DNA of 28,879 bases from Escherichia phage Phi06_2987 S: sequence record KM389287.1; one strand, written 5' to 3'. Shown one piece after another: positions 1,320 through 8,547 of the stretch (position 1 is the first letter of the stretch; every line of letters starts with the position of its first letter). The notes under the pieces are model-generated. The model was not told the origin of the DNA. It was given only the letters and a program-made list of their open reading frames with translations, and searched no databases. Both the position numbers and the translations under genes were made by a program.

Positions 1320-2429
1320 GTGTATAAGTTCACGCTTATAACTGGGAAAAAGAAAACTCTCGGTTCGGATCGAGTAATGGCTATCGCCATCGCCCGAGAA
1401 TATAACCTGAGGATGCGCCCTGAAAATACACCATCGATAGATTCATTAATTCGGGAATCGGGAGGGCTGAATGGTGAAGCCCACCCGTTTTCTGAACATG
1501 TTGATCGCATTATGGAGAGAGCGATCAAAGATGAGCAGCCGTCTAAAAGCACACTTGACGATTGGAATAATGATGCCATCAGGGTTAAAGAATTTTTTAA
1601 TAACATACCCGCATGCGATATTGAGCTTGAGCACGTAAATGCCTACATACGAAATTACCATTCTGAATCGTCGGCCAATGTTCAGAACCGAAAAGTTAGC
1701 TTCCTGAAAAAGCTATTCTCTTATGCTGTTGATGAATCGCTAATGATGGATAACCCTGCAACACGGAAAAAAATGCGGCGTGTCGATAAAAAGGTCCGCC
1801 GGCGACTCACTTTGGAACAGTTCTTGGCCATACATGCAGCTGCTGAACCTTGGCTGAAGACTGCAATGGACCTTGCCATACAAACTACGCAAGCGCGCCT
1901 GGAAGTTTCCCGGATCCGGTACTCGATCAAGGAACCTCAAGAAGGGGTTTGCGGCTGTGTATGGTTCGATCAGGAGGAGGCTGGCATATTCGGAACGCTT
2001 TACATTCACCGGCAAAAAGTGCAGCACAAAGAGGCTTCACACGTCGCTATTCCGATCGGCAGGGCCCTGAAAGAGATCATCGACAACAGCAGAGACAATG
2101 TGGCCAGTCCTTATGTTGTTCACCGGCTTCTGGAAAAGAGAAGCAATCCGATAAGTAAGGAAGTTAACCACCCAACACAGGTGGCCCCTGATTATTTGAG
2201 CAGGGCATTTTCAGAGCTGCGGGACCGGATAGGTGTAGCGGCAGAATTACCTATCAAAGAAAGGCCAACTTTCCACGAAATTAGAGCGCTGGCGGCTCAT
2301 ATTTTCGAAAGACAAGGTATCGATCCGCAGGCAAGGATGGCCCATAGTGATGCAAAATCGACAAAAATTTATACCCAGAATCATGTTGAATGGGTTGAAG
2401 TACCACATGCAGAAATAAAAATGGCATAG
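1320..2429 (+). CDS. int: tyrosine integrase (lambda Int family); N-terminal arm-binding segment lies in another frame from ATG 1249
   Basis: 369-aa ORF from GTG 1320 with a tyrosine-recombinase C-terminal region. The ATG at 1249 encodes MAARPRKKEYRHLPDYLF, which matches the integrase N-terminal arm-binding consensus but hits a stop at 1339. The two frames join only if the T7 run at 1298-1304 were T8. Confidence 0.9.
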   Translation: MYKFTLITGKKKTLGSDRVMAIAIAREYNLRMRPENTPSIDSLIRESGGLNGEAHPFSEHVDRIMERAIKDEQPSKSTLDDWNNDAIRVKEFFNNIPACDIELEHVNAYIRNYHSESSANVQNRKVSFLKKLFSYAVDESLMMDNPATRKKMRRVDKKVRRRLTLEQFLAIHAAAEPWLKTAMDLAIQTTQARLEVSRIRYSIKEPQEGVCGCVWFDQEEAGIFGTLYIHRQKVQHKEASHVAIPIGRALKEIIDNSRDNVASPYVVHRLLEKRSNPISKEVNHPTQVAPDYLSRAFSELRDRIGVAAELPIKERPTFHEIRALAAHIFERQGIDPQARMAHSDAKSTKIYTQNHVEWVEVPHAEIKMA

Positions 2430-2430
2430 A

Positions 2431-2455
2431 AAAAGGCACCTGATGGTGCCTTGAA
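2431..2455 (+). terminator. hairpin just after the int stop (possible terminator)
   Basis: Perfect inverted repeat AAGGCACC-TGAT-GGTGCCTT straight after the int stop codon. There is no long T-run, so termination efficiency is uncertain. A related GGTGCC-containing motif recurs at about 2478-2495. Confidence 0.35.
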
Positions 2456-2551
2456 TAAAGTCTTGAATAAGACACCCGAAGGTGCCTTAAGTGGTTCTCT
2501 TAGCAACGAACTAAGAACGCCCACGCCTCATACCCATAATCATGAGCATCA

Positions 2552-2653
2552 AGGACTTTTGCGGATTTCCCACGTACCTTGCGGTAACGGCAGAAAACCC
2601 AACGGAACCCTTTTGGTGCCGCTTTCGAAGCGATAGATTTCAAACTCATTCAT
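2552..2653 (-). CDS. candidate small protein (33 aa) downstream of ImmA
   Basis: Hand-found ORF MNEFEIYRFESGTKRVPLGFLPLPQGTWEIRKSP preceded by a near-ideal Shine-Dalgarno (TAAGGAGGTG, 6 nt spacer, ATG). Too short for the track. Existence is unproven. Confidence 0.25.
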
Positions 2654-2807
2654 GTAACACCTCCTTACCAAGAGAGATTTTTCCCTTGAACATCTTCCCT
2701 GAAGGTGTTAGTTTCAGGCTGTCTATTGAAGCTGTTCACGGTGGTGACGCCTCTCGGATTCATCACCTTAAGACCCCTTGCATTGGTTGGCGCCAAGCAG
2801 GGGGTTT

Positions 2808-3329
2808 TTACATTTTGTCTAACTGATATCGTGCGGCCACTAATGATACTCCGCATGCCTCAGCTACATTTTCAGCACTCATACCTTTCAGAACATTGGC
2901 ATGAATAGCCGGTACTAATAGCTCACCACTGAAACATTTGGCTTGCCACTCACTACTCTCAAAAGGGCGGATTTTTACCCCTGGAGCAGAACGCGCGAAA
3001 GCAATGTTCCTGTGCATGAGAAGATGTCCCAGTTCATGTGCGGCAGTCATCCTGTCACGCCCTACCCCATTCAAAGCACCCTCGTAAATGTCTTCACGAA
3101 GAATCAATAAATGTTCCTGTGGGTAGGTGAGACCGTGCGTCTCCCCCATTTCCTTCATCCCACCGATATGGAGTTCAAAATCTGGGATCAACTGAGGCAA
3201 TGCGAACTCAATCACCTCCATAACAGGAAACATCAGACCTGTAATACCGAAGGTGCTCCGCAGAGATCTGACGATAGAACGTATTGATTCGCGGTTCTGC
3301 GGGGGTACACGATAATCTTGTCCGCTCAA
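2808..3329 (-). CDS. ImmA/IrrE-family zinc metallopeptidase
   Basis: 173-aa ORF with an HEXXH motif (AAHELGHLLMH). TTG start preceded by AGGAGG. It begins 8 nt after the XRE gene stop, so the pair is likely an operon. Confidence 0.8.
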   Translation of the reverse strand: MSGQDYRVPPQNRESIRSIVRSLRSTFGITGLMFPVMEVIEFALPQLIPDFELHIGGMKEMGETHGLTYPQEHLLILREDIYEGALNGVGRDRMTAAHELGHLLMHRNIAFARSAPGVKIRPFESSEWQAKCFSGELLVPAIHANVLKGMSAENVAEACGVSLVAARYQLDKM

Positions 3330-3337
3330 AATGCCTC

Positions 3338-3697
3338 CTACTGCTGTTTTCGATTCAAAATCTGTCGTAAATTCCGGAAGTCTTCTTCATTTAACTCATC
3401 AAAACTACGAGCGAACGCAATTGCGACTTCACGAGCATGGTCGTTCTTACCTGACAAGCTGATCTCTACTGATTGCTGAGAGTCACGAGCTGCACTGATA
3501 AGCTTTTCTTTTTGTTTTTCATCCGCATTCAGATAGCCAATGATGCTATCAAGCACGGGTTTAGTGACCGCCCTTTTACCAGTTTCGATTGCTGAAAGAT
3601 AAGACGAGGTCATACCCATAGCCTCAGCCATGCTTTTAAGCGTAAGCCCCAGGTCTATGCGCATTTTTCTTACTGTCTTACCAAACGGCGTTAACAT
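3338..3697 (-). CDS. XRE-family helix-turn-helix transcriptional regulator
   Basis: HTH signature LGLTLKSMAEAMGMTSSYLSAIETGKR. Start at 3697 (MLTPFGK...) chosen for a GGAG Shine-Dalgarno; the track ORF extends to 3745 without a ribosome-binding site. Confidence 0.8.
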   Translation of the reverse strand: MLTPFGKTVRKMRIDLGLTLKSMAEAMGMTSSYLSAIETGKRAVTKPVLDSIIGYLNADEKQKEKLISAARDSQQSVEISLSGKNDHAREVAIAFARSFDELNEEDFRNLRQILNRKQQ

Positions 3698-3769
3698 AGT
3701 TGTATCTCCAGTGTGTCCAAGACCCCCATTACTCTTGGGTCTCATTTTAAGTTAACACGCTCCCGACAG

Positions 3770-3819
3770 AAAATCAACAGAATTTTGTTGATTTCTTTCA
3801 TGTCGATTCGTTTACGAAT
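3770..3819. promoter_or_regulatory. palindromic operator candidates upstream of the XRE gene
   Basis: Perfect 7-2-7 palindrome GATTCGT-TT-ACGAATC at 3804-3819 and an imperfect inverted repeat AAATCAACAGAATTTTGTTGATTT at 3770-3793, both in the leader region of the XRE/ImmA operon. Confidence 0.3.
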
Positions 3820-3922
3820 CTTCAGTCTCGTGTTGATTGAAACGTAGGTTGTGTGAAGAAGTATGGGGAAAAACCAGCTGTAACCCATTGATGTGTATAG
3901 TGCGGATTTTGCAAAAAATGCA

Positions 3923-3938
3923 CTGTTTGCATATACAG
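3923..3938. promoter_or_regulatory. LexA (SOS) box candidate
   Basis: CTGTTTGCATATACAG fits CTGT-N8-ACAG with an AT-rich centre. It differs at one position from the box at 4731-4746. Confidence 0.5.
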
Positions 3939-3994
3939 TCAAATGTGTCGCAGCACCAGTATTTACAAGGGTTACAGCGGATTTATCGCAGTGA

Positions 3995-4040
3995 CATGGG
4001 GTGTCGGGGGTCGGAGGTTCAAATCCTCTCGTGCCGACCA
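3995..4040 (+). other. 3' portion (about 46 nt) of a tRNA-Pro gene; probable attP core
   Basis: CATGGGGTGTCGGGGGTCGGAGGTTCAAATCCTCTCGTGCCGACCA contains a T-arm (GGAGG-TTCAAAT-CCTCT), the acceptor 3' strand CGTGCCG, discriminator A and CCA. This matches my recollection of enterobacterial tRNA-Pro(UGG), including the Pro-specific G72 that implies a C1:G72 pair. No matching 5' acceptor strand or D-arm lies upstream, so it is a fragment. Confidence 0.7.
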
Positions 4041-4051
4041 AAAACACATTG

Positions 4052-4080
4052 AAAACCAGCCTCTTACGGCTGGTTTTTTT
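4052..4080 (+). terminator. rho-independent terminator following the tRNA fragment
   Basis: Stem CCAGCC / GGCTGG with loop TCTTAC, followed by T7. Confidence 0.7.
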
Positions 4081-4145
4081 ATGTTTGAAATTTGTACGGG
4101 GAATCATTGGGGAAAAATGGGGGAATAACTCCCGACATTTACACG

Positions 4146-4466
4146 CTACATTACAGGCGATTTATCGTCTTTAACTTGGTTAAGTGTATGTGTAAGAACG
4201 CCGTGTACCGTTACGTCATTCAAAGCTTCCCCTTCTATCGCTTCACCATCTTGAGTGATCAGCGCGTGGCCCATTAGCTTCACGAACTGGTTTCTCCCGT
4301 CCATGCTAACCAGCAACGTATCCCCTCCTTCTGGCTTAAGACTGACGTTTATAACGGCCCAGCCGCATGAAGTTTCAATAACCCGGCAGTTGTTATCTAC
4401 ACCGCAGATAACATCTATTGTCATGCGCTGCTCCTGGTAATCCATGGCTGGCGATGGAAACCCCAT
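4146..4466 (-). CDS. hypothetical protein (106 aa), second gene of a two-gene operon
   Basis: Track ORF whose start overlaps the stop of the upstream 79-aa ORF by 1 nt. No family recognised. Confidence 0.5.
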   Translation of the reverse strand: MGFPSPAMDYQEQRMTIDVICGVDNNCRVIETSCGWAVINVSLKPEGGDTLLVSMDGRNQFVKLMGHALITQDGEAIEGEALNDVTVHGVLTHTLNQVKDDKSPVM

Positions 4467-4705
4467 TAGAAAACCCTCCCCATGTTACGCAGGATCCAGT
4501 ATCGGTTCTCACTTCCGTTTGTCGTCTTATCGGCGAAGTCTGGCTGGTATCGTTCGATCCATGAATTTGCATCTGCCTGGCTGAAATGCCAGTGCCTCTC
4601 CTGCAGTTCAGCGATGAATCTGTCTGTATGCAGGCAGAGATAGCCCTTCGGGTTTTGCTGTATGGCCGCAATAAAAGCAGCACGAATATCCGGTTGACGA
4701 GGCAT
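4466..4705 (-). CDS. hypothetical protein (79 aa), first gene of a two-gene operon
   Basis: Track ORF with a GAGGG Shine-Dalgarno 7-8 nt upstream of the ATG. Its predicted promoter region overlaps the LexA box at 4729-4748. Confidence 0.5.
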   Translation of the reverse strand: MPRQPDIRAAFIAAIQQNPKGYLCLHTDRFIAELQERHWHFSQADANSWIERYQPDFADKTTNGSENRYWILRNMGRVF

Positions 4706-4726
4706 GAACGCACCCTCACTTGCTTA

Positions 4727-4756
4727 TTGACTGTATGCATATACAGTAGTATTTTT
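4727..4756 (+). promoter_or_regulatory. SOS-regulated promoter of the DinI-like gene (-35, LexA box, -10)
   Basis: TTGACT (-35, 4727-4732), 17-nt spacer, TATTTT (-10, 4750-4755). The LexA box gACTGTATGCATATACAGTa (4729-4748) overlaps the spacer. The gene 50 nt downstream is DinI-like, a classic LexA target. Confidence 0.6.
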
Positions 4757-4804
4757 ATGAAAACAGATCAAGCACAGGCAATTTTCACTTATGAGAGGAT
4801 CCGT

Positions 4805-5068
4805 ATGTTTGTTGAACTGGTTTATGACAAGCGAAATGTTGAGGGGCTCCAAGGGGCCAGAGAGATCATCCTGGCTGAACTAACGAAGCGGGTGCACCAG
4901 ATTTTTCCTGATGCCGAAGTGAAGGTAAAGCCGATGCAGGCGAACGGCTTAAATAGTGATGCCAGCAAAAGTGATCGGGAAAAGCTGAACCGTATGCTGG
5001 AGGAAATGTTTGATGAATCTGACATGTGGCTGACGTCTGAATTTCCAACTGTACGGCAGAATGGATAA
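4805..5068 (+). CDS. dinI: DinI-family (MsgA-like) DNA-damage-inducible protein
   Basis: 87-aa product MFVELVYDKRNVEGLQGAREIILAELTKRVHQIFPDAEVKV...DMWLTSE matches the DinI/MsgA pattern as I recall it. GAGAGGA ribosome-binding site upstream; the track ORF (from 4586) is over-extended at its 5' end. Confidence 0.85.
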   Translation: MFVELVYDKRNVEGLQGAREIILAELTKRVHQIFPDAEVKVKPMQANGLNSDASKSDREKLNRMLEEMFDESDMWLTSEFPTVRQNG

Positions 5069-5077
5069 TACTTTGAC

Positions 5078-5101
5078 GGGCAGCCCATCTAGCAGCTGCC
5101 C
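5078..5101. terminator. stem-loop between the convergent dinI-like and invertase genes
   Basis: GGGCAGC ... GCTGCCC inverted repeat with a 10-nt loop, located between the dinI-like stop and the invertase stop. Confidence 0.45.
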
Positions 5102-5110
5102 TTCAATCAT

Positions 5111-5665
5111 TTAAGCCTGTCCCACCGGAAATTTTTTATAAAGCGTGCATACAGCGACATCATAAATTATTGCCACTTGTTTTCTATCCACGCCGTTTAA
5201 TATTAATCTCCCAGCTTGTGCCCATTGCTCGGGAGTTAATTTTGGACGTCTGCCACCTATTCGCCCTTTTTCCCGCGCCGCCGCTAATCCAGCCCGGGTG
5301 CGTTCGACGATTAACTCTCTTTCCATTTCCGCCAGCGCTGACATGATGTGAAATATAAAACGCCCCATTGGACTTGATGTATCAATGCTGTCCGTGAGGC
5401 TCTTAAAGTGAATGCCCCGCTGTCGGAGTTCGTCCACCAGCAGCACTAAATTTCGCATGCTTCGCCCGAGGCGATCTAGTTTCCACACCACCAGTGTATC
5501 GCCCGCATTCAGAGTCCGCAGAAGCTTTTTGAGCGCTGGCCGGTTCGCTACCGTCCCGCTCATTTTTTCTTCAAAAACCTGTTCACATCCTGCGCGTTCG
5601 AGAGCTTGGCGCTGGAGATCTGTATTTTGGTCATTTGTTGACACTCTGACATAGCCAATTTGCAT
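5111..5665 (-). CDS. serine recombinase, DNA invertase (Gin/Pin/Hin/Cin/Min family)
   Basis: MQIGYVRVSTNDQNTDLQRQAL... is the canonical invertase N-terminus with the catalytic serine context; the C-terminal HTH region resembles Gin as I recall it. ATG at 5665 preferred over the upstream GTG at 5674. Confidence 0.9.
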   Translation of the reverse strand: MQIGYVRVSTNDQNTDLQRQALERAGCEQVFEEKMSGTVANRPALKKLLRTLNAGDTLVVWKLDRLGRSMRNLVLLVDELRQRGIHFKSLTDSIDTSSPMGRFIFHIMSALAEMERELIVERTRAGLAAAREKGRIGGRRPKLTPEQWAQAGRLILNGVDRKQVAIIYDVAVCTLYKKFPVGQA

Positions 5666-5699
5666 ATTTTTCACCCAATAAATTCTGCAAAAAAATCAG

Positions 5700-6533
5700 G
5701 TGAAGTTATCGGCCAGGCCGGCCCGTGGCAATCTATTAAACGTCGGTTTGGGAAGCAGCGCTACAAGGAACGCGTACAGCTCATCTGGCGATATACTTTC
5801 TGTAGGGGATTTGGGCTTGGGTGTTGTTGCCCCTGCCGAACAAAACCGTTACGAAAACGCGAGATTAAATGGCTTTTATAACATTGCCTCTGGTTCCGGC
5901 AACGGCCTGCCAACTAATGATGCGGGCTACGGTGTCTGGATGAACCGAAGCTCAAATTACGGCACCTTTGAGTGCTGGCTAAGTGGGCCTGTCGGGAGAA
6001 AAATGTTTAGCCAGGTTATAGGCGGAACAGCAGGTAAATGGTATGAATTTTACCATACAGCTAATACGACAAAAGCCAGTGACGGCACTATCAAAGCTGC
6101 CTCCCCCGTGGCACGAATTGTAACGAGCAAGGATGAGTGCCAGCGTGCTGATATAGCGGAGGATGGTTTTACCTGGTGCGGCTGCGGTGCGGCGAATGCC
6201 GAGGCTGAGGGCATTACTATTTCACGGCTTGATGTCGGCGTTTATGTTCTCACAGGTTCGGCAGGCCTGGCGTCTGAGGGATGGCAGTTACTTCCCCCAA
6301 TGGACCCTGGCGGCATGGGGGAACTGGGTGTAGTTGAGGCAGAGCAAACCGATAGCGGTGGGCTGACTATCCGTCTGTATAAACGCAAATACATCCTGAG
6401 CGATGAAGGTGAAATCATCAAAACCAAAGGTGAACCGATGGACGTACCGGCGAACAGCTGGATCGATGTTCGCTTGGATATGCCCGCAGATTCACTGTTT
6501 AACCAGCGGATGAGCCAGAAGCCGGAGATTTAG
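5700..6533 (+). CDS. alternative tail fiber C-terminal cassette C (likely start-less in this orientation)
   Basis: From site 1 the frame reads ...NVGLGSSATRNAY..., parallel to ...NLGLGSSATKDVG... at the crossover point in the expressed tail fiber. Its C-terminus (VPANSWIDVRLDMPADSLFNQ) and an internal block (TANTTKASDGTIKAASPV) are homologous to cassette A. The ATG at 5700 is probably fortuitous. Confidence 0.65.
   Translation: MKLSARPARGNLLNVGLGSSATRNAYSSSGDILSVGDLGLGVVAPAEQNRYENARLNGFYNIASGSGNGLPTNDAGYGVWMNRSSNYGTFECWLSGPVGRKMFSQVIGGTAGKWYEFYHTANTTKASDGTIKAASPVARIVTSKDECQRADIAEDGFTWCGCGAANAEAEGITISRLDVGVYVLTGSAGLASEGWQLLPPMDPGGMGELGVVEAEQTDSGGLTIRLYKRKYILSDEGEIIKTKGEPMDVPANSWIDVRLDMPADSLFNQRMSQKPEI
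5731..5756. other. invertase crossover site 1 (gix-like), inverted relative to sites 2 and 3
   Basis: ATCTATTAAACG-TC-GGTTTGGGAAGC. Its reverse complement shares cTTCC(c/t)AAACC-GA with sites 2 and 3. It lies 78 bp upstream of the invertase start, at the 5' end of cassette C. Confidence 0.65.
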
Positions 6534-7142: not shown

Positions 7143-8489
7143 TTAATCGGCCGTCTCGGCCAGCTCTGCAGCTCTGAGTTTTTGGTTGTATAAAGAATCA
7201 ACAGGCATTTCGACACGGACGGACACAAACTGATCGGAGGGAATATCTACCGGATCGCCATCGTTGATACCCGGCAGCTCGTTCCTGGCGAATGCTGGTG
7301 CTTCAGGATGTGTGCGGTGATAGGTTTTAACCAGCACAGAGCCATCCGCGTTAACCTCATAATCCAACCAGACAAGCGCCTGCTTGTTGCGGTCGGTGGG
7401 GATGTCAAAACCGCCATCAATACCACCCCAGGCAGCGTCTGAATTTAGCCCCTCGCATCCTTCAACCAGATATTCACCAGTGCCCAGGCGGGTTACAGTG
7501 CAGCCCTCAGACTCATCGTTTGTGTGGCACTCGCCATTCATAAAAATTTTCACAACTGGTGATGCAGCTTTAAGCGTGCCATCACTGGCCCTGGTCGTAT
7601 TAGCTGTGCCGTAGAGTGTGTTAAATGTCGAGGTGCTACTTGATCCGGAGGTATTTCTCGCTAACACCCCAACAACGCCTGAATCATAGGCAACACTCAT
7701 AATCGCGTGTGTGTCTTCAGAAGCAAAATATAATGATGCTGAATATGCCCTTTGAGAGTTAACAGATTTGTTGTTGCGAAAGACTCGAGTACCTTTGTCT
7801 AAGAGGTTTGCCCATACATCAGCAACGGTATCTGCATTAAAGGATAGCCCTTTCCCCCCGAACCCAAACGCACCTACTTCCATGATGTTTCCGACGGATG
7901 TTCCGACGTCCTTTGTCGCGCTACTTCCTAAACCGAGGTTTGTGCGAGCGTCTGATGCAGTTTTCGAACCTGTTCCGCCCAGAGATACAGGCACTACACC
8001 ATCTGTAAACCCCAGGTTGCTTCTGGCGTCAGCGGCATTCGTTGCCCCGGTCCCGCCGTCCGAAACTCCAATCGCCCCATTGCTCCCTTTCTGGACCAGT
8101 TTGCCGATCGCCGGAATGGTTACACGAGCGCCGTTGATGGTGACGGTGATGTTCTGGTTTGCTGAGGTAGTGGCGAACGTCTCCCACGCGCCAATATTCT
8201 CGTCATATTCTTTGATGAGCTGCGACATTGCCTGGGCCAGTCCGTCGACGGAGATAATGTCTGACACCAGAATGGCGTATTTCTGGCCGCTCAGCGCCGG
8301 AGAAGCTGCAGGCGTAATCGTCATTGACGTGGCGCTGTTCACGGATGAAATCTGGAACAGCTGCACCGGGTTAGACATCACGATAATCGTCTGGCCAGCG
8401 CGAACCTGGCTGGCCGGTGCAGTCCAGTTTGTACCGGATCCGGTTGCGGTATTTCCGTTAATAGAGATAGTTCCTGTGTTATAAAGCAT
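7143..8489 (-). CDS. side tail fiber protein (constant N-terminal part plus currently fused C-terminal cassette A)
   Basis: Start at 8489 (MLYNTGTISINGNTATGSGTNW) with a GGAG ribosome-binding site. Contains phage tail fiber repeat-like motifs (…ARSNLGF…SLGGTGSKTASDARTNLGLGSSATKDVGT…). Crossover site 3 lies inside the gene. The track ORF extends to 8534. Confidence 0.85.
   Translation of the reverse strand: MLYNTGTISINGNTATGSGTNWTAPASQVRAGQTIIVMSNPVQLFQISSVNSATSMTITPAASPALSGQKYAILVSDIISVDGLAQAMSQLIKEYDENIGAWETFATTSANQNITVTINGARVTIPAIGKLVQKGSNGAIGVSDGGTGATNAADARSNLGFTDGVVPVSLGGTGSKTASDARTNLGLGSSATKDVGTSVGNIMEVGAFGFGGKGLSFNADTVADVWANLLDKGTRVFRNNKSVNSQRAYSASLYFASEDTHAIMSVAYDSGVVGVLARNTSGSSSTSTFNTLYGTANTTRASDGTLKAASPVVKIFMNGECHTNDESEGCTVTRLGTGEYLVEGCEGLNSDAAWGGIDGGFDIPTDRNKQALVWLDYEVNADGSVLVKTYHRTHPEAPAFARNELPGINDGDPVDIPSDQFVSVRVEMPVDSLYNQKLRAAELAETAD
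7925..7948. other. invertase crossover site 3 (gix-like), inside the tail fiber gene
   Basis: TTCCTAAACC-GA-GGTTTGTGCGAG. This resembles the Mu gix site (recalled as TTCCTGTAAACC-GA-GGTTTTGGATAA). The central dinucleotide falls in codon positions 2-3 of the Leu in ...TNLGLG.... Confidence 0.65.
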
Positions 8490-8500
8490 ATTTTCTCCAG

Positions 8501-8527
8501 GCAATAAAAAACCCCGCCGAGGCGAGG
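8501..8527 (-). terminator. rho-independent terminator between the lipoprotein gene and the tail fiber gene
   Basis: On the minus strand: CCTCGCC-TC-GGCGGGG followed by TTTTTT. Confidence 0.45.
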
Positions 8528-8547
8528 TTTGCATTGAAAGTCATGAG

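Follow-up and report, generated by a model that had tools for sequence, protein, structure and literature searches.

The dinI-family gene of Escherichia phage Phi06_2987 S is preceded by a palindrome resembling the operators of LexA, the repressor of the host SOS response, and beyond this palindrome a second transcription unit runs in the opposite direction, encoding a 79-residue protein (orf79) and a 106-residue protein related to UmuD' and HumD (humD'). The question raised by this locus is which of the two units the palindrome would control, and what the phage could gain from that control. We analysed a window of 28,879 nt from this phage (KM389287.1), in whose numbering all positions are given, and our results suggest that the palindrome is probably a shared LexA operator serving both dinI and orf79-humD'.

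The LexA operator of gammaproteobacteria is a 16-bp palindrome, CTGT-N8-ACAG, with an AT-rich centre and the consensus TACTGTATATATATACAGTA. In the window this core appears as CTGTATGCATATACAG at 4731-4746, with exactly palindromic arms, inside the stretch 4727-4755 (TTGACTGTATGCATATACAGTAGTATTTT). A preliminary description of this DNA had placed such a box in the spacer of a TTGACT/TATTTT promoter, 50 nt ahead of a DinI-family gene, and had named scoring with a LexA matrix as a test. The sequence and a promoter scan bear out the arrangement, profile searches agree on the gene (Pfam PF06183, E = 4.4e-22; E. coli DinI structure 1GHH, E = 2e-6), and the 20-mer scores within the range of real sites, its heterology index being 5.1 where the training sites span 1.4-10.2 (approximate values, from a matrix of 30 E. 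coli sites taken from published operators). Apart from this box and a second one described below, the best site in a scan of the window has an index of 12.8, and only 0.2% of 1000 dinucleotide-preserving shuffles of the window hold a site as good. Independently of the matrix, CTGT-N8-ACAG occurs twice in the window, against 0.26 occurrences expected. As far as sequence can tell, the box is a high-quality LexA-type operator.

The pattern of conservation points in the same direction. In 72 IMG/VR loci, or 62 when identical sequences of the extended region are counted once, dinI and orf79 point away from each other across a spacer of 85-100 nt. Across the 62 distinct sister sequences the arms of the box are conserved at 99.6% (CTGT) and 100% (ACAG) while its centre varies, and the remaining islands of conservation are TTGACT (98%), TATTTT (99%) and CAGATCAAG (99%); conservation drops to 75-82% in the two mRNA leaders and from the end of TATTTT to GATCAA. 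It is hardly credible, then, that the palindrome is an operator of the phage repressor, a target for recombination or insertion sequences (ISs), or an AT-rich palindrome arisen by chance. A second copy of the motif does stand in the attP arm, where palindromes can serve recombination proteins, but the exact arms, the AT-rich centre, a score within the range of real operators and the invariance of the arms around a variable centre all argue against such origins. Also, the same motif accompanies the same genes in phages of five other genera, and the three relatives compared have differently annotated repressors of 218-257 residues, which argues for a host factor and not a phage-specific one.

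The start codons of dinI and orf79 lie 99 nt apart, and the box in this divergent intergenic region overlaps promoter elements of both genes, filling the spacer on the plus strand and coinciding with the -10 element on the minus strand, as judged from predicted start sites. On the dinI side, the sigma-70-like promoter TTGACT-17-TATTTT matches the consensus at 9 of 12 positions with its 17-nt spacer occupied by the box, and the ATG at 4805 follows the -10 element by 50 nt, with a GAGAGGA Shine-Dalgarno sequence ahead of it. Read on the minus strand, the region has the form CTTGATC-N17-TACTGTATATGCATACAGTCAAT, in which TTGATC stands 17 nt from TACTGT. The two hexamers are 17-18 nt apart in eight of ten contexts, including phages of Klebsiella, Cronobacter, Pantoea and Enterobacter that have no dinI, and they form the candidate promoter of orf79-humD'. 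The orf79 gene itself starts 25 nt from the end of the box, with a GAGGG Shine-Dalgarno sequence 7 nt ahead of its ATG.

The ownership of the box can be judged from relatives in which the two units are found apart. The dinI gene is absent from eight contexts: the loci L060, L061 and L063 and the phages Klebsiella RCIP0114, Erwinia Midgardsormr38, Cronobacter phiES15, Pantoea AH07 and Enterobacter LAU1. The gene upstream is there a co-directional tail-fibre gene or an acyltransferase. In all eight the orf79-humD' pair retains a strong LexA box (index 1.7-3.5 in the five named phages), about 10-25 nt ahead of the orf79 Shine-Dalgarno sequence, and in all except Erwinia Midgardsormr38 TTGATC lies 17-18 nt ahead of TACTGT. 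Three further phages, SaltyDalty, CharmingMan and LMessi, are homologous to the window at the DNA level from the dinI ATG onward, with unrelated upstream regions; dinI is nevertheless preceded by one or two LexA boxes in each (index 3.5-5.1), with promoters of the TTGACA type. Since orf79-humD' is boxed without dinI and dinI is boxed elsewhere, both units would be under SOS control in their own right, and the window lineage can be described as two putatively LexA-controlled units joined back to back, with one operator common to both.

This comparison also bears on the proposal, made in the preliminary description, that the box is the operator of dinI. Its quality as an operator and its overlap with the dinI promoter stand; its being private to dinI does not, given that relatives without dinI retain it. 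A private dinI operator, with the minus-strand genes transcribed from another promoter or free of SOS control, is quite unlikely. It would agree with the fact that the plus-strand promoter is the only one found by the consensus scan, with the neat fit of the box in its spacer, and with the LexA boxes that phage dinI genes carry elsewhere; however, it is contradicted by the boxes ahead of orf79-humD' in at least eight contexts lacking dinI, seven of which have the upstream TTGATC as well. With 99 nt between the starts and the box 25 nt from the orf79 ATG, the orf79 promoter has to overlap the box or lie upstream of it, and from an upstream position it could still be blocked by bound LexA. The converse arrangement, in which the box controls orf79-humD' and dinI was inserted beside it with constitutive expression or a promoter of its own elsewhere, would do justice to the older and wider association of the box with orf79-humD'. 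We hold it to be very improbable, because the TTGACT and TATTTT hexamers, ideally spaced and 98-99% conserved, are confined to the lineage that has dinI (relatives without it show TACTGT...ACAGTA flanks), and because the generic promoter scan found no other promoter in the dinI 5' region.

A shared operator would imply a simple mechanism. A single dimer of host LexA at 4729-4748 would repress two overlapping, back-to-back promoters, filling the spacer of the dinI promoter and covering the -10 element and start site of the orf79 promoter. Upon DNA damage, self-cleavage of LexA would allow DinI, orf79 and the UmuD'-like protein to be produced at the same time, with no involvement of the phage repressor. 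We infer both the binding of LexA and the damage-inducibility of the three genes from the nucleotide sequence.

What would be produced can be considered gene by gene. The match of the 87-residue dinI product to Pfam DinI (78.6 bits, cutoff 24.2) covers positions 2-63 of the 63 in the profile, and the protein also matches phrog_189, annotated as 'RecA filament binding protein DinI'. Its alignment with the E. coli DinI structure includes the acidic C-terminal helix, where EILQETWESADDWFVSE is paired with RMLEEMFDESDMWLTSE. DinI binds RecA filaments and selectively inhibits the processing of UmuD, and its acidic C-terminal helix reportedly mimics DNA when contacting RecA (a finding ascribed to Voloshin et al. 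2001 in PMC3121763). Against the model of the chromosomal DinI equivalog (NCBIfam NF007893) the phage protein reaches 37.9 bits, below the cutoff of 111, and we therefore regard it as a member of the DinI family and not as an orthologue.

The second gene of the minus-strand operon overlaps the first at a TAATG, in which the orf79 stop meets the start of the humD'-like gene, and this suggests translational coupling. A profile of the 106-residue family aligns with E. coli UmuD in hhalign with 97% probability (E = 1.2e-10) over 96 columns, beginning at Gly25 of UmuD and ending at its residue 137. RecA-mediated processing of UmuD, by cleavage between Cys24 and Gly25, leaves Gly25 at the N-terminus of the product, UmuD'. 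The N-terminus of the phage protein, M-GFPSPAMDYQEQR, thus aligns with UmuD residues 25-37, the arm GFPSPA-DY-EQR, and among 40 members of the family no substitution is seen at M1, G2, F3, S5, P6, A7 and D9, and hardly any at P4 and Y10. A gap of 12 residues in the alignment removes the SGDSM loop with the Ser60 nucleophile; a lysine aligns near Lys97, and the Ser60/Lys97 dyad is consequently incomplete. This loss speaks against a protease while leaving a UmuD'-like role untouched, because a protein that is made already truncated requires no self-cleavage. With an AlphaFold2 model of moderate confidence (predicted local distance difference test score, pLDDT, 68), Foldseek returned only the C-terminal domains of LexA, UmuD' and lambda CI, with template-modelling scores of 0.60-0.61 to UmuD' over the full length, so that hhalign and Foldseek both assign the protein to the S24 fold of the LexA/UmuD C-terminal domain. 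No Pfam family, Peptidase_S24 included, matched it. The protein appears to belong to a separate, divergent family, phrog_3469, and is best described from its alignments and model as a UmuD'/HumD-like protein, predicted to be pre-processed and non-cleavable, that falls outside the curated HumD equivalog.

The first gene of the operon, orf79, has no PHROG, Pfam or NCBIfam annotation and is predicted to encode a small protein with a winged-helix-like fold, the topology sought being alpha1-beta1-alpha2-alpha3-beta2-beta3. Lambdoid phages from at least six genera of enterobacteria, and one plasmid, have it in front of a UmuD'-like gene, and our best guess at its role is partnership with, or regulation of, the UmuD'-like protein. 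It could be asked instead whether orf79 is a LexA-controlled antirepressor in the style of GfoA and GftA of the Gifsy phages, Tum of coliphage 186 or AntC of N15, which would make the locus a switch for prophage induction. A 79-residue protein behind a LexA box, next to a dinI homologue and outside the immunity region, is the very signature of the Gifsy antirepressors (PMC3121763), and a winged-helix-like fold would suit a regulator that binds protein or DNA. Yet we find this unlikely, for several reasons. A tblastn search of 50,697 phage records with orf79 (E <= 1) matched 48, none of them Gifsy, 186, Fels-2 or N15. The repressors of relatives that carry the module are long (a 218-residue 'LexA family' protein in mEp390, a 231-residue CI-like protein in Eeyore and a 257-residue CI in HK225), which by length and annotation suggests the classical route of self-cleavage in these three phages, to which the comparison applies, the immunity region of the window phage itself lying outside the window. 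Finally, orf79 is tightly and, it seems, translationally coupled to the UmuD'-like gene across genera, and its homologue on a plasmid has no prophage to induce. No defence-system match was found for DinI, orf79 or the UmuD'-like protein in PADLOC.

Besides the approximate nature of the matrix values, several observations weigh against the picture of a shared operator releasing a DinI and a UmuD' substitute. The minus-strand promoter is weak by consensus (TTGATC 4/6, TACTGT 3/6), was missed by the generic scan because it falls below the 9/12 threshold, and is proposed from comparative data only; the Erwinia phage and an IncX-type plasmid do not have the 17-nt spacing; and the conserved CAGATCAAG could alternatively owe its conservation to a Dam site or to the 5' end of the dinI transcript. 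As to the 106-residue protein, in addition to the moderate confidence of its model, its matches to the curated models are short and far below the cutoffs, with 33.6 against 120 bits for HumD (NF051876, residues 1-22 only) and 21.9 against 110 bits for UmuD (NF007621, residues 2-44 only). Moreover, Gifsy phages with non-polar deletions of dinI showed no significant change in induction (PMC3121763), and the gene's part in physiology may therefore be a subtle one.

If both units are nonetheless induced from one operator, DinI would be expected to modulate RecA filaments, and the UmuD'-like protein to act in the Pol V/translesion pathway without the need for RecA-mediated activation. The preliminary description had suggested that dinI could affect the kinetics of prophage induction or host mutagenesis; the link to mutagenesis would be borne at least as much by the UmuD'-like gene, which that description had missed. 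Co-induction of DinI and a ready-made surrogate of UmuD' as a manipulation of Pol V or of the UmuD checkpoint is a speculative extension. Its strongest form, a cassette for taking over the SOS response in which DinI blocks the processing of host UmuD while an uncleavable UmuD' surrogate and its dedicated partner orf79 are induced together, strikes us as rather doubtful. If it were true, control over the use and timing of Pol V-type translesion synthesis or of the UmuD checkpoint would pass from RecA to the phage, and orf79 would be a new conserved accessory factor of HumD-type proteins.

Several known systems share parts of this organization. LexA control of prophage dinI homologues has been demonstrated experimentally in Gifsy phages (PMC3121763, PMC8072944), with heterology indices tabulated in the latter study. 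As in Gifsy-1, -2 and -3 of Salmonella, the window has a DinI homologue directly behind a LexA box that overlaps the promoter, outside the immunity region (Lemire, Figueroa-Bossi & Bossi 2011, PMC3121763), and the wiring, shown there and predicted here, is to the host SOS response instead of the phage repressor. The Gifsy dinI genes, however, head longer operons, in which the antirepressor (gfoA/gftA) and irsA come next and which follow the replication genes. By contrast, the window dinI is monocistronic and is sited between tail fibres and attP, with a hairpin at its end and an invertase gene facing it; its companion genes are encoded in the opposite direction and have no sequence relationship to gfoA/gftA. 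The Tum protein of coliphage 186 and its split versions in Fels-2 and PSP3 (discussed in PMC3121763) likewise pair a DinI-like sequence with a second small function in a LexA-controlled phage unit, but there the DinI-like part is fused to or co-transcribed with the antirepressor, and here the partners are winged-helix-like and UmuD'-like proteins encoded on the opposite strand.

Closer in layout is the lxr/humD locus of phage P1, where one LexA operator lies between divergent genes, one of them encoding a pre-truncated UmuD' homologue. P1 HumD is said to substitute for UmuD', judging by the title of McLenigan et al. 1999 (cited in PMC4713147). In the P1 record (NC_005856), one LexA site is placed 'in the regulatory region of lxr and humD', two genes transcribed divergently, and a note says that HumD functionally replaces UmuD'. 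The differences are that P1 HumD (129 residues) meets the curated HumD model, whereas the 106-residue window protein matches over 22 residues and is without the Ser60 loop, that the divergent partner in P1 is lxr and not dinI, and that P1 humD has no orf79 ahead of it. One LexA box common to two divergent SOS genes is also known from uvrA/ssb of E. coli and Salmonella (PMC8072944), although these are chromosomal core SOS genes with unrelated promoters and spacing. With umuDC and UmuD' of E. coli the humD'-like gene shares LexA repression (predicted here), an S24-like beta fold and the arm GFPSPAxDYxEQR; unlike umuDC, it is followed by no umuC, its product is made already 'processed' and without the nucleophile loop, and it is preceded by a gene for a winged-helix-like protein. 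The locus is therefore a new combination of known parts, dinI opposite orf79-humD', with an uncharacterised partner protein included.

As such, it offers a clean example of accessory genes of a temperate phage apparently plugged into the SOS circuit of the host, bypassing the phage's own repressor, and it illustrates how two SOS-wired units could merge onto one operator. Wherever orf79 and the gene of the pre-trimmed, apparently catalytically dead look-alike of UmuD' occur together, a strong LexA box stands ahead of them. The pair is widespread in phages, occurs on an E. coli plasmid as well, and is a candidate for modulating mutagenesis after DNA damage in enterobacteria. This may bear on SOS mutagenesis caused by antibiotics, as prophage induction and LexA cleavage are both consequences of quinolone treatment.

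Table 1. Features of the module and its surroundings in the window (promoter start sites and protein functions are predictions)
Feature	Positions	Strand	Basis or context
XRE-type helix-turn-helix protein (135 residues), then ImmA/IrrE-type metallopeptidase (173 residues)	2808-3745	-	between integrase gene and attP
Second LexA-type box, CACTGTTTGCATATACAGTC	3921-3940	palindrome	attP arm; outside the dinI unit
Terminator-like hairpin, bidirectional	4051-4078	both	hairpin scan; flanked by the attP/tRNA-Pro fragment and the 3' end of the humD'-like gene
UmuD'/HumD-like gene, 106 residues	4146-4466	-	phrog_3469, hhalign, Foldseek
orf79, 79 residues, winged-helix-like, no known family	4466-4705	-	first gene of the minus-strand operon
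-35 TTGACT, dinI promoter	4727-4732	+	promoter scan; overlaps left arm of box
LexA (SOS) box, 20-mer GACTGTATGCATATACAGTA	4729-4748	palindrome	matrix score and arm conservation
-10 TACTGT, candidate orf79-humD' promoter	4743-4748	-	comparative; equals one arm of the box; start predicted near 4736
-10 TATTTT, dinI promoter	4750-4755	+	promoter scan; start predicted near 4762
-35 TTGATC, candidate orf79-humD' promoter	4766-4771	-	comparative; inside conserved CAGATCAAG, neighbours 75-79%
dinI-family gene, 87 residues, monocistronic	4805-5068	+	Pfam PF06183, phrog_189, 1GHH
GC-rich hairpin	5073-5106	both	between convergent dinI and invertase genes

Some further observations concern the orf79-humD' pair. 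The plasmid homologue of orf79 is found on E. coli plasmid NZ_PV023096 (51 kb; about 2851-3090 of our locus L168), with 38% identity (E = 1e-16), directly ahead of a gene named 'HumD family translesion DNA polymerase' by PGAP and with the insertion sequence ISKox3 in its LexA box; the pairing is thus not specific to phages. TTGATC serves as the putative orf79 -35 element in the window and in seven other contexts (L060, L061, L084 and L086-L089), five genera being represented with the window lineage included, and since this hexamer always contains the Dam site GATC, expression that is sensitive to methylation is hinted at. In SaltyDalty a gene annotated as encoding a 'UmuD-like protein' (1797-2129 of locus L090) is a chimera, whose first 40 residues or so are the N-terminus of the ISKox3 transposase and whose remainder is the C-terminal two-thirds of the UmuD'-like protein. 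It looks like the scar of an IS insertion followed by a deletion.

ISKox3, a 1316-bp element of the ISL3 family, interrupts the centre of the shared box itself in four sister loci (L003, L044, L058 and L065; equivalent to 4735-4742 in the window). The 8-bp target duplication is in each case exactly the N8 between CTGT and ACAG, and the four loci have four different duplications, with insertions in both orientations. The pattern extends beyond the module (loci L095-L165 and L166-L169). All 30 IMG/VR contigs with an ISKox3 end have CTG 12-10 nt from that end, 29 of them CTGT, in 19 distinct flanks, and the rebuilt empty sites have heterology indices of 1.4-6.3. Among species-representative genomes, 27 of 37 copies are flanked likewise, the exceptions being mostly in an IS-expanded symbiont, and the E. 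coli copies sampled sit in the tisB/istR box, the sbmC box and a plasmid orf79-humD box. A relative of the element, ISEc53, sits in the sbmC LexA box of E. coli Nissle 1917. ISKox3 thus appears to home into SOS boxes, and its insertions in the box studied here provide an orthogonal hint that this is a LexA box. The terms 'ISKox3' and 'LexA' were not found together in the literature searched. If the homing of ISKox3 and ISEc53 is confirmed and proves to be unreported, it would outweigh the module in importance, as a case of ISs that specifically rewire SOS genes (tisB, sbmC, plasmid humD and phage dinI), and the elements, if their homing is confirmed, could serve as a natural marker of LexA operators. 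The Nissle 1917 copy of ISEc53 (about 1501-3385 of locus L169) measures 1885 bp and contains between its ends a passenger gene of the ClbS/DfsB family, of the type that provides self-protection against colibactin.

The phage belongs to the lambdoid siphoviruses and is similar to mEp390, HK140, HK225 and Eeyore. Its genes are in the vegetative order, with early-left genes and integrase (1320-2429), an XRE/ImmA pair, attP and the module, followed by the gene of a DNA invertase (5111-5674) and those of the tail fibres, tail and head; the dinI/orf79/UmuD'-like module therefore occupies the 'b-region' slot, with the tail-fibre genes on one side and attP on the other. The attP core, about 3995-4040, carries the 3' part of a tRNA-Pro gene, a tRNA scan of the whole window found no complete tRNA, and E. 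coli genomes match the window from 3995 onward, with a full tRNA-Pro annotated at that point. As phage DNA stands on both sides of attP, the window is in unintegrated (vegetative or circular) order. The module is rare in E. coli, with any match in 32 of 5426 complete genomes and at least 80% of its length in 14. Across 3300-5800 no Rfam match was obtained at E <= 1, and known small RNAs or leaders are thus absent from the intergenic region. The GC-rich hairpin behind dinI folds with -16.6 kcal/mol (z -4.7) on the plus strand and -19.8 kcal/mol (z -3.4) on the minus strand and is likely a bidirectional terminator, though poor in its U-tract. For the minus-strand operon, a hairpin at 4121-4133 listed by the scan was rejected as terminator (folding z -0.27, without support) in favour of the more credible 4051-4078.

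The second LexA-type box, in the attP arm, has a heterology index of 7.0, and 0.3% of the 1000 shuffles hold a site as good. It lies in a minus-strand TTGACT-16-CATTTT arrangement, similar in design to that of the first box, that points at the XRE/ImmA pair, and together with the whole attP region it is conserved in Eeyore, L035 and L081. The genes that it faces differ: the XRE/ImmA pair in the window, a TPR-like open reading frame of 255 residues in L081, and in Eeyore nothing before the integrase gene. The box may mark a slot for SOS-inducible cargo, or LexA may have a role at attP. The best matches of the XRE and ImmA proteins in the defence database are CapH and CapP (PADLOC, E = 4e-10 and 1e-10). 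CapH and CapP form a DNA-damage-responsive pair of regulators in CBASS and other defence systems. Among the neighbouring genes in the window there is no obvious regulated effector adjoining the pair.

On the far side of the module, the invertase, a protein of the Hin/Pin type with 187 residues, adjoins two opposed cassettes for tail-fibre C-termini, at 5700-6533 on the plus strand and 7143-8534 on the minus strand. Both cassettes contain a 70-nt inverted repeat with 74% complementarity, and by analogy with Mu, P1 and e14 this is probably an invertible segment that determines host range.

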